From: a virus
IMG/VR virus record: IMGVR_UViG_3300009431_000882
Reading direction: 5' to 3' (one strand)
DNA: 43,263 nt
The notes under the pieces are model-generated. The model ran no database searches. It was not told where the DNA came from and was given only the letters and a program-made list of their open reading frames with translations. This document shows, piece after piece, positions 36,307-41,087 of the stretch; within the stretch, counting starts at the first letter, position 1; every line of letters starts with the position of its first letter. Position numbers and translations under genes: made by a program.

Positions 36307-38985
36307 ATGTCTCCGCTTGTTTTCTCCGCCGTGATTCTTCTGGGCATCGTAGGCGTGTTCATTTTATGTTACTACGCCTCCGGCCTCGCCATTCGCTTCC
36401 GCTCATGGCTCGGCCAGCGAAAACTGTGGAAACCTCATTGGAAAGCGGCGAGGATGCCCACCACGCCGACCGTCGAGGACTACCTGAAAGTCCGCCAGGG
36501 AATCGAAAGTGAGTACCAAAAGAGAATCAGCAAGTATGTACCTCCCGGATGCGGTGTGGGAGAAGAGGGGGGCGGTGTGCACGTCGTACCGCCAGTTGAT
36601 GAGAACAAGAAAGAAACACCCGTTGAGGAGCGGTGGAAAATACTTGGAGATGACGAACTTCCCTACATTCCTATTCGGCCAAAACCAAAAGGGGAAACAA
36701 AAGCTGCTTACGGCGGCTCTCCGGTGCGGTTCCCGCACTGGTCCTTCGGGATGGAGGCTGCCTGTCACCCGGACCCCAACGCCCCGTCAGCGCCAGCCGT
36801 GAAACCCGAAGCCACTTCCCCCGGCAACGCCGGGGGAAGTGGTGAGGGGAAGAAAACGAATCACCATGTCAGAAACGAATGTCTCAGCAAGGCGAAGTCC
36901 TTAGCCTTTCGTTCCCTTCCTCACAGTGATTCACTCAAAGAAGACTGGAACGGCTACCGCTCTGGCGATATCTTCTACTGCGTCACGTGTAGTGGTTGGA
37001 CGATTGCTCATATGATTGTCCGTGACCACGATGTTGTCTGGTGTAAGTTTGAACCCGATCTTACACGGGTTGAAGATGTGGCTCTTTGCATGAGGCGGTT
37101 TGCAGAGCAGCATCATCATCTACATTCATCAACGACCATCTCCATCTGGTCGATGGCAGGCGCAGAATGTCCCATCGCCGCTCAATCGAAGCTCTCACTC
37201 AAAGGCATACGAGTCATTTACCAATCAAGAGAATGTGATTGGCTGCGGTATCGCATTGAGGTAATCGGGGAGGAAGACAAGGATTGGCGAGAAGTGGGTA
37301 CGGTGTGGTGTAACATGAAGACGCTTGAATACCAGTTTCGTCCTTTTCGGGCGAATCACGTGCCACACAATACTGCAATCCGTTCCGCAATATCCAACTT
37401 TGCCAAGTACTGTCTCAAGTGGGAGCGATGGCCAGCGATGGCCCGTTTCAAGAGCGAGCCTCCTTTCGTCTTCACCGACGCATCTATTGCTACGGTTTGT
37501 CGTTGGACTTCTAAGCAGTTGAAGGAAGAAGAACACAAACCCAACAACGAGCAGCAACCTCCGCCCTCACCAAAGGCTTTGTCTCGCATTCGATTCAACT
37601 ATGGTTGCCGGTCTGGCGATTGGCTGCGATATGACATCAGAGTACTGGAAGAAGGGCAACCAGAAGCATCTGAACATGCGTGGAAAGAAGCAGGGATCGC
37701 ACGATTCAACGTAAAGACTCTTGAGAGGCAGTTTCATCCCTCTCACGAATCGTATACGTATACGCAGCGGAACGACGAACTCAACCACATGGTCTATTTC
37801 TTCGTCAAACATTGTCTTCACTGGAAGCGCTGGCCGTGGGGAGCCAATTTCAACGGTGGACACGCCTTCACTTGTAGCAAAGTGTCCGCCGCCACGGCTG
37901 CTGACTGGTCAAAGGAAAGTCGTGAGAAGTTGATGCAGGATCAGCACGACGACTACTATCCCAAACTGAGGGGGCTCTTGCAAACTACGTCCATCCGTTT
38001 ACAGGGAAATACGTCAGAGCACACGGCAATCCGTTTTCAGTTTGACAAGGTACTCGATCATTGGCCTGGCGACCGGCCGCAGTGGTTACAGTACAGAATA
38101 ACGACCTATGACCCTACGAAAGGCCCGGAGTATGTGGGTTGGATGGTTGTTAACGCAGATAACCTGACATACTGTTTTCACGATCTGCGAGACGAGGCAG
38201 AGGTGGCAAACATCGGGAGACTGAGTGTCGCCGCCGCCCTCTTTCTGGATGAATACAGGGCTTCTCACAAGTGGCCAGAGTACATGAGGTACGGGTTTAA
38301 CCGGGAAGGAAAACAGGTCAACAGCACCCAAGGTCCGTACATTCCCGAACCGGCTGACCCCATTCAACGAGTGAACCTTGTTTTCATTGGCAGCACGGAT
38401 GTGAGTTTGCGCTATGGGGTGACGGTGGTAAGGAGCAGCAGCAAATGTAAGTCGTATGGCACCGTAAGATTCGAGAAGGACGGCAATCGATTCAACCACG
38501 CCAGCTTGATGCCGAGGCTAGCTGAACTCGCCATCTCCGCCTTCAACCAACACTCCAAACAAGCAGGCGAATGGAAGAAGTGGGCTTACTATGAGCCTGC
38601 GGGAAACGGTAAAGTGCAGTTGAAGAGTGAAAGCAGCGAAAGCAGCGAAAGCCCGGAGCCATACCGCCGAGAGACATTAGCCGCCTTGGATCAAGACAAC
38701 ACAGAATTAGTCTTCACCCGAGTGGCAAACACAACAATCAGGGAAGGTGAGGTTCGCTTCAAGATCGAAGCAGTAACAGCCAAGACCCGGCACCAAATAG
38801 GATTCGTTCATTACGATTCAGAAAGGAGAATACGGGTCTATCACGAGATCGAACCGTATTTCGCCGGGCATGTACCCTCGATACTCCAGACCGCTGATGA
38901 ACTGGCAACAAAGTGGTCAAGGCCGGTAGTTGGTGCAACGTACCGTATGCCATTTAGAAAAGAAGAACCAACAACAATCGCTTAG
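36307..38985 (+). CDS. large hypothetical protein with an N-terminal membrane anchor and three internal repeats of about 110 aa
   Basis: The start is set at MSPLVFS by analogy with the downstream paralog. A K/P-rich linker follows the anchor. Three repeats share DWLRY.I.....W.....N.KTLE.QF.P......HCL.WKRWP. Confidence 0.55.
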   Translation: MSPLVFSAVILLGIVGVFILCYYASGLAIRFRSWLGQRKLWKPHWKAARMPTTPTVEDYLKVRQGIESEYQKRISKYVPPGCGVGEEGGGVHVVPPVDENKKETPVEERWKILGDDELPYIPIRPKPKGETKAAYGGSPVRFPHWSFGMEAACHPDPNAPSAPAVKPEATSPGNAGGSGEGKKTNHHVRNECLSKAKSLAFRSLPHSDSLKEDWNGYRSGDIFYCVTCSGWTIAHMIVRDHDVVWCKFEPDLTRVEDVALCMRRFAEQHHHLHSSTTISIWSMAGAECPIAAQSKLSLKGIRVIYQSRECDWLRYRIEVIGEEDKDWREVGTVWCNMKTLEYQFRPFRANHVPHNTAIRSAISNFAKYCLKWERWPAMARFKSEPPFVFTDASIATVCRWTSKQLKEEEHKPNNEQQPPPSPKALSRIRFNYGCRSGDWLRYDIRVLEEGQPEASEHAWKEAGIARFNVKTLERQFHPSHESYTYTQRNDELNHMVYFFVKHCLHWKRWPWGANFNGGHAFTCSKVSAATAADWSKESREKLMQDQHDDYYPKLRGLLQTTSIRLQGNTSEHTAIRFQFDKVLDHWPGDRPQWLQYRITTYDPTKGPEYVGWMVVNADNLTYCFHDLRDEAEVANIGRLSVAAALFLDEYRASHKWPEYMRYGFNREGKQVNSTQGPYIPEPADPIQRVNLVFIGSTDVSLRYGVTVVRSSSKCKSYGTVRFEKDGNRFNHASLMPRLAELAISAFNQHSKQAGEWKKWAYYEPAGNGKVQLKSESSESSESPEPYRRETLAALDQDNTELVFTRVANTTIREGEVRFKIEAVTAKTRHQIGFVHYDSERRIRVYHEIEPYFAGHVPSILQTADELATKWSRPVVGATYRMPFRKEEPTTIA

Positions 38986-41087: not shown

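Follow-up and report, generated by a model that had tools for sequence, protein, structure and literature searches.

Two neighbouring genes in the window (the whole 43,263-nt stretch of DNA analysed), here called A and B, encode large proteins that resemble one another at their N-termini, where a sequence-only reading had aligned the first 45 or so residues, and then continue into bodies described there as completely divergent. The questions raised by this locus are what the shared N-terminal module is, how the bodies attached to it are related, and whether the arrangement belongs with the polymorphic toxin, effector or surface-display systems to which it had been likened.

Gene layout and the shared N-terminal segment

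The open reading frames that the sequence-only reading had assigned to A and B were both confirmed (Table 1). They are separated by 53 nt, and the locus is present on four contigs, identical apart from one microsatellite indel. Gene A has an alternative ATG at 36292, 5 codons upstream of the MSPL start, and between the start of B and the preceding stop there is no earlier start codon. The JGI call for B begins at L49 (634 aa), with loss of the anchor described below, and the call for a third gene, C, begins at M16 (131 aa), which likewise removes it. These public calls begin too late, without the anchor, and automated annotation would thus call both proteins soluble. The pyrB gene ahead of C is possibly the first gene of a transcription unit with C, A and B. 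A strong terminator-like hairpin is found upstream of pyrB (34265-34297) and a weak one just past B (41129-41150). B is followed by a 66-aa ORF and a TrkA_C membrane protein. A genome scan with pyrB returned only a Muribaculaceae match, 37% identical and thus uninformative on the organism or on synteny. The source metagenomes are JGI 3300009320, 3300009314 and 3300013120, and the sample accessions led to nothing relevant in the literature. Planctomycete-like hints are limited to a sub-threshold Planc_extracel match and a dockerin domain.

Table 1. Coordinates of the genes and protein segments discussed (window positions).
Feature	Coordinates	Strand	Description
pyrB (aspartate carbamoyltransferase)	34827-35741	+	stop 11 nt before C start
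Gene C	35753-36193	+	146 aa, GTG start; anchor and short basic tail
Gene A	36307-38985	+	892 aa from MSPL; anchor, ~170-aa Pro/Gly/Lys/Glu-rich linker, repeat array
A anchor module, aa 1-36	36307-36414	+	MSPLVFSAVILLGIVGVFILCYYASGLAIRFRSWLG
A linker, aa 37-205	36415-36921	+	low complexity; K 17, R 9, P 21, G 17, E 15, net +6
A R0, aa 205-292	36919-37182	+	possible degenerate sixth repeat, weak support: z 3.5 vs R3
A R1, aa 290-400	37174-37506	+	R1 vs R2 BLASTP E 2e-21, z 32
A R2, aa 420-535	37564-37911	+	copy modelled with AlphaFold2
A R3, aa 565-680	37999-38346	+	R1 vs R3 E 0.003, z 4.9
A R4, aa 682-775	38350-38631	+	z 4.4 vs R1; jackknife HMM i-E 0.03, in register
A R5, aa 790-892	38674-38982	+	most divergent copy; z 5.3 vs R1; jackknife HMM i-E 2.1, in register
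Gene B	39039-41087	+	682 aa; anchor, K/P-rich linker, orphan body
B anchor module, aa 1-36	39039-39146	+	MSPLIFSLTLLCGVVGVFCLVYCLPNLATRLCSWLG
B linker, aa 51-150	39189-39488	+	K 21, R 6, P 17, net +17
B body, aa 151-682	39489-41084	+	~530 aa; orphan

Residues 1-80 of A align with residues 1-77 of B at 41% identity (BLASTP with composition-based statistics, E 3e-12), while all other A-B segments have E of at least 1, so that the N-terminal alignment claimed earlier stands and is confined to the first ~40-80 residues. The breakpoint between A and B is sharp. This pair is the strongest paralogous match within the region. Over codons 1-36 the two genes share 21 identical residues at a nucleotide identity of 60%, and 12 of the 21 are specified by different codons, which argues for selection on the peptide. 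The conserved parts comprise a 3-residue uncharged N-tail, a hydrophobic helix of ~23 residues and a juxtamembrane L-A-x-R-x-x-S-W-L-G motif. Kyte-Doolittle hydropathy (19-residue window) rises to 2.76 in the A anchor, and maxima of 2.2-2.8, from residues 1-13 onward, occur nowhere else in A, B or C. Residues 3-69 of B are modelled by AlphaFold2 as one helix (pLDDT 74-91).

A profile built from the N-termini of A and B only, run against 686 six-frame ORFs from 49 kb of the same genome, matched A, B and C alone, with C at E 2e-4 and the next-best ORF at E > 2. The C anchor reads (M)SSSPLGFSILLLATMVWVFLIGYWLPSLIRP and is followed by a short basic tail; BLASTP of C gives E 1.7e-4 against B and 4e-3 against A. 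The anchor cluster thus comprises three adjacent genes, C, A and B, the membership of C being based on about 26 residues. Neither gene C nor the internal repetition of the A body described below figured in the sequence-only reading.

Chance likeness of two hydrophobic segments is conceivable for a short alignment, given the common composition of transmembrane helices, yet has next to no probability here. The E-value of 3e-12 already allows for composition, polar and aromatic positions are identical as well (S2, P3, S7, Y22, R30 and SWLG), a third copy begins the ORF immediately adjacent, and no other ORF scores in the 49 kb, nor does anything among PDB sequences or in Pfam. The A-B BLASTP and the A+B profile search effectively refute it. 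By these comparisons, the match between the A and B anchors is sequence-specific, going beyond generic hydrophobicity, and the anchors are paralogous and under protein-level selection.

Orientation of the anchor in the membrane

No Lys or Arg precedes the anchor helix in A, B or C. On its C-terminal side, residues 24-50 lack Asp and Glu and contain 7 Lys/Arg in A and 2 in B, and C has four immediately after the helix (R31, R37, K38 and K39). All three proteins thus show the pattern of a reverse signal-anchor, namely a single N-terminal helix with positive charge on the C-terminal flank only. Because the positive charges all lie C-terminal of the helix and none N-terminal, the bodies should face the cytoplasm under the positive-inside rule, which is established (reviewed in PMC5525207). 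The anchor is most likely a reverse signal-anchor with N-out/C-in topology and cytoplasmic bodies. This topology is a prediction of the charge rule, with only two positive charges near the helix in B, and the standard rule may mislead if the host envelope or endomembranes are unusual.

The converse arrangement, an N-in/C-out signal-anchor or uncleaved Sec signal which would make A, B and C exported proteins of the envelope, periplasm or surface with an N-terminal tether, is unlikely. An N-terminal hydrophobic helix, a Pro-rich spacer and repeated small domains do form a common envelope-protein layout, the neighbouring gene at 31605-33638 is of extracellular type (dockerin and Planc_extracel matches), and A-S-G at residues 24-26 of A offers a possible small-residue cleavage site. 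B and C do not share this site, however, and the n-region lacks a positive residue in all three proteins. Positive charges just after a hydrophobic helix inhibit Sec translocation of the downstream chain, and such charges cluster right after the helix here, as with the 7 Lys/Arg in residues 24-50 of A. The hydrophobic stretch is of transmembrane length, longer than the h-region of a cleavable signal, and the 14 Cys of the A body show no evident pairing pattern. A lipoprotein reading was rejected, there being no conserved lipobox; a Cys at position 12, following L-L, occurs in B only.

Linkers, the repeat array of A and the body of B

Beyond the anchor, the basic Lys/Pro-rich linker described in the sequence-only reading fits B (net +17) and only partly fits A (net +6). 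Residues 66-164 of B have pLDDT below 50 and lack secondary structure in the AlphaFold2 model, and the B linker is probably disordered; disorder is suggested for both linkers. The bodies that follow had been estimated at about 750 and 560 aa, close to the ~690 (A) and 530 aa (B) found here.

The A body consists of five, possibly six, copies of an alpha+beta domain of ~110 aa. R1 and R2 are closely similar, and R1 matches R3, R4 and R5 at z 4.4-5.3 over shuffles (Smith-Waterman). Concerning the possible copy R0, residues 21-58 of a related protein, P0003 (see below), match the A repeat profile, while the profile is not significant by hhalign against A residues 1-289, which include R0. The model of R2, built by AlphaFold2 from an alignment of the five repeats only, has pLDDT 87.7 and pTM 0.84; in it, four strands are followed by a long helix and then by four short strands. 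The repeat architecture of A and the fold class of its repeat are thereby established, and a new repeat domain is defined, for which the repeats within one protein suffice to give a confident AlphaFold model.

Aromatic core positions are conserved among the repeats (WLRY, F-P and W-x-[RK]-W-P), whereas only one column, a Gly, is invariant and no polar or catalytic-type residue is conserved. Neither Pfam nor PDB sequences gave a match to the repeat, no specific fold matched it, and Foldseek found nothing at E < 0.09 in PDB or BFVD. Its likeness to the ATP-grasp subdomain of rifampin phosphotransferase/PEP synthase and to GNAT is one of generic sheet-plus-helix architecture and not of family, with only 6-10% sequence identity and no conservation of nucleotide- or CoA-binding residues among the A repeats.

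For the B body, no homologue, internal repeat or family was detected, and its single-sequence AlphaFold2 model (pLDDT 39.8) is unusable for fold search. Smith-Waterman scores between the A and B bodies do not exceed those of shuffles, hhalign of the A repeat profile against B gives a probability of 0.2%, and looking for the A repeat in B and C by hhalign, by sliding-window HMM comparison against shuffles and by Smith-Waterman z gave no significant result. The A and B bodies are thus unrelated at the sequence level, in agreement with the complete divergence noted earlier.

It is nonetheless possible, if doubtful, that the B body and a remnant in C are the same alpha+beta domain as in A, diverged past detection, in which case duplication of the entire gene would have been followed by very rapid and perhaps diversifying evolution. 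Even R4 and R5 of A itself are barely detectable, and B residues 308-388 fall in register with positions 21-95 of the jackknife repeat HMM, at an i-E of only 0.14. In the B model, itself of low confidence, residues 297-376 run beta-beta-beta-beta-alpha, the same order as in the A repeat, and after that helix Y-S-W-P-G (residues 379-383) echoes W-x-R-W-P; in C, FRFRPFRWWH resembles YQFRPFRANH of R1. Against this, none of the comparisons is significant, windows of B do not outscore shuffled sequence, the best A-versus-B z among 30 comparisons is 3.1 in an alignment out of domain register, and B has neither internal repeats nor a reliable model.

Relatives, known systems and the proposed family

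Searches of A and B individually, and of a composite profile (A, P0003 and the B and C anchors), against 5.8 billion word-indexed proteins returned only their own entries. An exhaustive HMM search of 1.84 billion representatives with the A repeat profile found one real if distant relative, P0003, a 313-aa fragment on a contig of 1194 bp (JGI 3300042731) where another gene begins 38 nt past the P0003 stop. P0003 residues 95-208 are 50% identical to R1, its last repeat aligns to R4 within a BLASTP segment of E 9e-9, and its arrangement is partial R0, R1, an R4-like repeat and a C-terminal end similar to that of A. P0003 has fewer repeats than A, and repeat number therefore varies between relatives. 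Two further candidates, P0004 and P0005, were rejected as unrelated low-complexity tandem-repeat proteins matching the helix segment only. No match came from scanning metagenomes with either the A/P0003 or the anchor alignment, nor from a viral scan; the A/P0003 scan missed even the contig of the window itself, and the organism is therefore apparently missing from that metagenome collection. A and B thus behave as orphans throughout these searches.

Additional copies of the anchor were absent from the 49 kb of the same genome, the protein database and two metagenome scans, in a search whose word-index and pattern methods are weak for a 40-residue module and whose genome coverage is one contig's worth. 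The sequence-only reading had suggested looking through the genome for other genes with such an N-terminus; within the 49 kb, C alone came to light. Its idea of a conserved anchor on variable bodies survives as a specific module on unrelated bodies in three adjacent genes, no wider family having been found in these searches. Of the outcome that it had named as refuting, a generic signal-anchor with no wider family, the second half agrees with these searches and the first does not fit, since the anchor is sequence-specific.

The analogy drawn in the sequence-only reading with polymorphic toxins, effectors and surface-display proteins is not supported, and the anchor charges predict cytoplasmic bodies. 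Searches of Pfam, NCBIfam, PADLOC, PHROGs and PDB sequences with the three proteins and those of neighbouring genes detected no toxin, peptidase, trafficking, immunity, defence or secretion domain, and the Pfam search gave no secretion-pathway N-terminal domain (signal peptide, lipobox, WXG/LXG, TPS, PAAR/VgrG, PrsW or SpvB). A polymorphic-toxin-like or parallel-effector system, in which a constant N-terminal trafficking or anchoring module is recombined with variable payloads, is very improbable. Such a system would suit adjacent, orphan and fast-evolving genes with a conserved N-terminus and unrelated C-termini, and the nearby cpYpsA SLOG and ADP-ribosylglycohydrolase are sometimes linked to conflict systems. 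Rhs/filamentous domains are however lacking as well, and no small immunity-type gene follows A, B coming next. The variable parts are 530-690 aa long and in A form a repeat array without catalytic residues, cassette-like repeats of 3' ends are absent from the region, and the 49 kb, the 5.8e9 proteins and the metagenome contigs yielded neither a further gene with the anchor nor an orphan cassette.

Among the closest parallels are constant N-terminal modules, each confined to one lineage, that head variable effectors or toxins, such as MAFB-N of Neisseria, Microscilla-N and Amoebophilus APD1/APD2 (Zhang et al. 2012, PMC3482391). These share with the present cluster a short, lineage-restricted N-terminal module kept across paralogs with dissimilar C-termini, the paralogs presumably being deployed in parallel. 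MAFB-N-type modules, however, occur beside a signal peptide or lipobox, recognisable toxin/effector C-termini and immunity genes (PMC3482391), whereas in the C-A-B cluster neither a usual export signal nor a domain of toxin or immunity type was found, and the module is carried by three adjacent genes with no wider set of carriers found.

TatA and TatB, which are reverse signal-anchor proteins with a very short N-tail, offer a topological analogy only: a few uncharged residues lead into a lone transmembrane helix at the N-terminus, and beyond it come a helical juxtamembrane stretch and a long, charged, probably disordered cytoplasmic region. By eye, LGFSILLL...LP of C also resembles IGFSELLL...LP of E. 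coli TatB. TatA_B_E gave no Pfam match at E <= 10 when the N-terminal 60-70 residues of each of the three proteins were searched, and the anchor profile found nothing significant among PDB sequences, with no Tat protein at E <= 10, although TatA/TatB chains are presumably included there. The TatB look-alike of C was rejected on this lack of Pfam and PDB-sequence matches. A and B have neither the Tat hinge F-G-x-[KR]-[KR]-L-P nor the polar residue found at position 8 in Tat proteins, and Tat components are not known to carry large globular bodies. The N_methyl plus DUF1559 families of Planctomycetes likewise combine a conserved hydrophobic N-terminal helix with many paralogs and differing bodies, in a planctomycete-like setting, but neither domain matches A, B or C in Pfam, and the leader peptide, G-F-T-L-x-E motif and Glu at +5 of prepilin-type N_methyl segments are absent from the anchors.

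The reading preferred here, with a probability of about one half, is that C, A and B constitute a tandem-duplicated, fast-diverging, lineage-specific family of bitopic membrane proteins with a new repeat domain, in an uncultured bacterium. Tandem gene duplication would have produced three paralogous bitopic inner-membrane proteins, with conservation retained afterwards only in the first ~36-45 residues. The reverse signal-anchor (N-out/C-in) would place a long flexible Pro/Lys-rich linker and a large body on the cytoplasmic face, and the bodies would have diverged past sequence recognition, that of A growing through internal amplification of its ~110-aa domain. Since the A repeat has a conserved aromatic core and no conserved catalytic-type residues, the bodies are read as non-enzymatic and may be membrane-held binding or scaffold modules, rather than enzymes or toxins.

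A bolder proposal, considered quite improbable, is that C, A and B found a family not described before, in an uncultured bacterium that is deeply divergent and possibly planctomycete-like. A dedicated N-out/C-in anchor, whose conserved small and aromatic positions perhaps mediate oligomerisation, would keep arrays of the new alpha+beta domain on long basic tethers at the cytoplasmic membrane face as a scaffold or skeleton element, all bodies deriving from one very fast-evolving domain. The biological significance of the locus is limited at present; on the preferred reading of a tandem-duplicated membrane protein family, the locus would provide a small, clean example of tandem duplicates that keep only their membrane-insertion module while their bodies diverge beyond recognition.

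A common N-terminal anchor in three tandem genes

No paralogous pair in the region matches more strongly than genes A and B, neighbours on the same strand. Their N-termini align as the sequence-only reading had claimed (residues 1-80 of A and 1-77 of B, 41% identity, E 3e-12), and share the anchor core MSPL[VI]FS..L..G[IV]VGVF.L.Y....LA.R..SWLG; all remaining segments of the two proteins gave E >= 1 (BLASTP). Among the first 36 codons, 12 of the 21 identical residues are encoded by different codons and nucleotide identity is only 60%, which shows that the similarity is preserved in the protein and does not stem from a recent patch of gene conversion. 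This conservation also supports a translation start of B at 39039. B has no start codon in the stretch from the previous in-frame stop to MSPL. In A, an alternative ATG is located five codons 5' of the MSPL start.

A profile derived solely from A and B was searched against all 686 six-frame ORFs of at least 40 aa, from the window plus 5.7 kb added by contig L001. It matched a third gene, C, upstream of A (E 2e-4; N-terminus (M)SSSPLGFSILLLATMVWVFLIGYWLPSLIRP), and the next-best match had E > 2. The genome check proposed for other anchor-bearing genes thus added one member, with no further copies in the 49 kb beyond A, B and C. The paralogy and architecture are demonstrated. Public JGI gene calls begin B at Leu49 (634 aa) and C at Met16 (131 aa); with the conserved transmembrane anchor lost in this way, annotation would present both as soluble. 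Different samples have yielded four JGI contigs with the locus, and their DNA is identical over 9 kb except for a (GCCGCT)n microsatellite within C (window 36138-36160; contig L003, 1944-1978). Translated, this repeat gives AAAA in the window and AAAAAAAA in L003, through an in-frame slip of 12 nt.

Coordinates of the anchor-bearing genes, their parts and neighbouring features
Feature	Coordinates	Strand	Details
Gene C	35753-36193		small ORF, GTG start; starts 11 nt past pyrB stop codon
Gene A	36307-38985	same as B	ORF, 892 aa from MSPL start
A linker	A aa 37-205		K 17, R 9, P 21, G 17, E 15; net charge +6
R0, candidate degenerate sixth copy	A aa 205-292		z 3.5 vs R3
R1	A aa 290-400		E 2e-21 vs R2
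R2	A aa 420-535		E 2e-21 vs R1
R3	A aa 565-680		E 0.003 vs R1
Gene B	39039-41087	same as A	ORF, 682 aa
B linker	B aa 51-150		K 21, R 6, P 17, G 3, E 9; net charge +17
Anchor stretches cut off by JGI calls	39039-39185 (B); 35753-35800 (C)		public starts too late
CCA-adding/poly(A) polymerase-family nucleotidyltransferase	8118-9575	+	overlaps HAD_SAK_1 gene
HAD_SAK_1 'Swiss Army Knife RNA repair' phosphatase	9541-10296	+	overlaps nucleotidyltransferase gene
396-aa ORF	29092-30282	+	phage family phrog_2087 (unknown function), E 7.7e-43; no Pfam match
677-aa protein	31605-33638	+	dockerin type I domain; sub-threshold 'Planctomycete extracellular' N-terminal motif
Strong terminator-like hairpin	34265-34297		5' of pyrB; 14-bp stem and T-run
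TrkA_C-domain membrane protein	41297-41992		between A/B/C cluster and SLOG gene
Circularly permuted YpsA SLOG-family protein	42246-42755	+	E 1.8e-31; just downstream of cluster, past TrkA_C protein
ADP-ribosylglycohydrolase	L001 13073-13918	+	E 4.8e-27; just downstream of cluster, past TrkA_C protein

Linkers and bodies of A and B

The description of both linkers as basic and Lys/Pro-rich suits B better than A, the B linker being strongly Lys/Pro-rich and the A linker Pro/Gly/Lys/Glu-rich and only mildly basic. In a single-sequence AlphaFold2 model of B, a single helix spans residues 3-69 (pLDDT 74-91), and residues 66-164 are unstructured (pLDDT below 50).

The body of A is an array of copies (R1-R5) of a new repeat domain of ~110 aa, with the consensus I-R-F-x-Y ... 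W-L-R-Y-x-I-x-V ... G-x-V ... F-x-P ... helix ... W-x-[RK]-W-P. R1 scores z 4.4-5.3 over shuffles against R3, R4 and R5, and the preceding segment R0 is possibly a degenerate sixth copy. The sole invariant position is one Gly, and no polar residue is conserved among the copies. The AlphaFold2 model of R2, computed from an alignment of the five A repeats alone, is confident (pLDDT 87.7, pTM 0.84), with four strands followed by an 18-residue helix and four short strands. Foldseek gave no significant match in the PDB (best E 0.09) or among viral models, and the predicted fold is read as a generic alpha+beta sandwich likeness, implying no family membership. The FRFRPFRWWH of C resembles YQFRPFRANH in the first clear repeat of A, a likeness not significant alone.

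Divergence of the A and B bodies was borne out at the sequence level. No internal repeats were found in the body of B, the A repeats aligned to B with an hhalign probability of 0.2%, sliding windows of B scored no higher than shuffled sequence, and the best of 30 comparisons with the repeats (z 3.1) was out of register. B might still hold an A-type domain, from two weak hints that do not establish it: a jackknife repeat HMM aligned residues 308-388 in register (i-E 0.14), and residues 297-376 show a beta-beta-beta-beta-alpha pattern in a poor model.

No match to A, B or C was found in Pfam, NCBIfam or PADLOC, or to A or B in PHROGs, where C gave one weak match to a family of unknown function (E 0.005). 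PDB sequences yielded nothing significant for the A repeat profile or B, and searches of 5.8e9 proteins with A and with B each retrieved only the query. Against all 1.84e9 cluster representatives, the repeat profile found one real relative, P0003, a 313-aa fragment encoded on a 1.2-kb metagenome contig (JGI 3300042731, 1194 bp). It is 50% identical to R1 and consists of a partial R0, R1, an R4-like copy and a similar C-terminal end; repeat number therefore varies among relatives. On the same contig, another gene call opens 38 nt beyond the stop of this A-like fragment, at the place expected for the start of a B-like gene with an anchor; it continues past the contig end after 54 aa. A composite profile including the three anchors gave nothing further, even at E <= 10, and two metagenome scans and one viral scan returned no relatives. 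C, A and B make up a new family of orphans, ordinary in kind: bitopic membrane proteins that are paralogous and encoded in tandem.

Genomic setting

The contig resembles a piece of chromosome from a very divergent bacterium. Scores far under the usual equivalog cut-offs were obtained for its pyrB, M16 peptidase, SpoU methylase, SDR epimerase and CCA-adding enzyme, and many of its ORFs have no family match whatever. The sole taxonomic hint in the window is the dockerin protein, which tentatively points towards Planctomycetota; a genome scan with pyrB gave only a 37%-identical match and did not confirm this. The overlapping nucleotidyltransferase and HAD_SAK_1 genes (8118-10296) possibly constitute an RNA-repair pair. 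In a 953-aa protein (2518-5379, +), residues 603-730 clearly match the Major Vault Protein shoulder domain (Pfam MVP_shoulder, E 3.6e-13), and the protein matches no other family; an MVP-like protein on a bacterial contig is unusual.

The strong hairpin lies within a 1.2-kb stretch lacking a convincing ORF (33639-34826), and Rfam gave no match at the gathering threshold anywhere in the window. Together with a weak terminator-like hairpin 3' of B, its position in a consensus scan is compatible with a putative pyrB-C-A-B transcription unit. Past the 3' end of the window, L001 contains another two pairs of adjacent paralogous ORFs of 120-140 aa (14650-15374 and 15751-16552; BLASTP E 7e-8 and 3e-5) without a Pfam family. 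Orphan genes seem to be duplicated in tandem frequently in the source genome.

Known systems and the proposed topology and role

The closest conceptual analogues to the toxin, effector or surface-display role raised by the sequence-only reading are MAFB-N, Microscilla-N and APD1/APD2, lineage-specific constant N-termini carried by variable effectors (PMC3482391). By contrast, A, B and C, when tested, had no export signal, no tips from toxin families and no immunity genes downstream, and a wider set of anchor carriers, as in those systems, was sought in the 49 kb, the protein database and the metagenome scans and not found. The feature is real and slightly richer than first described, with three genes and a new repeat domain, but the analogy is unsupported. 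The anchor resembles TatA/TatB in topology; profile comparisons with PDB sequences and with Pfam were negative, and a prepilin-type N-terminal domain was ruled out by motif and profile.

The anchor comprises an N-tail of three uncharged residues followed by a hydrophobic stretch of transmembrane length. No K/R precedes the helix in A, B or C, and all nearby positive charge follows it (residues 24-50 contain seven K/R in A and two in B). The positive-inside rule is well established (reviewed in PMC5525207), and by this rule the helix should insert N-out/C-in, which would place the linker and body on the cytoplasmic side. The family would have arisen by tandem duplication followed by rapid divergence. 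Given that no catalytic residues are conserved in the bodies, and that the body of A is a string of small domains, we favour a role for A, B and C as membrane-tethered, cytoplasm-facing binding or scaffold proteins.
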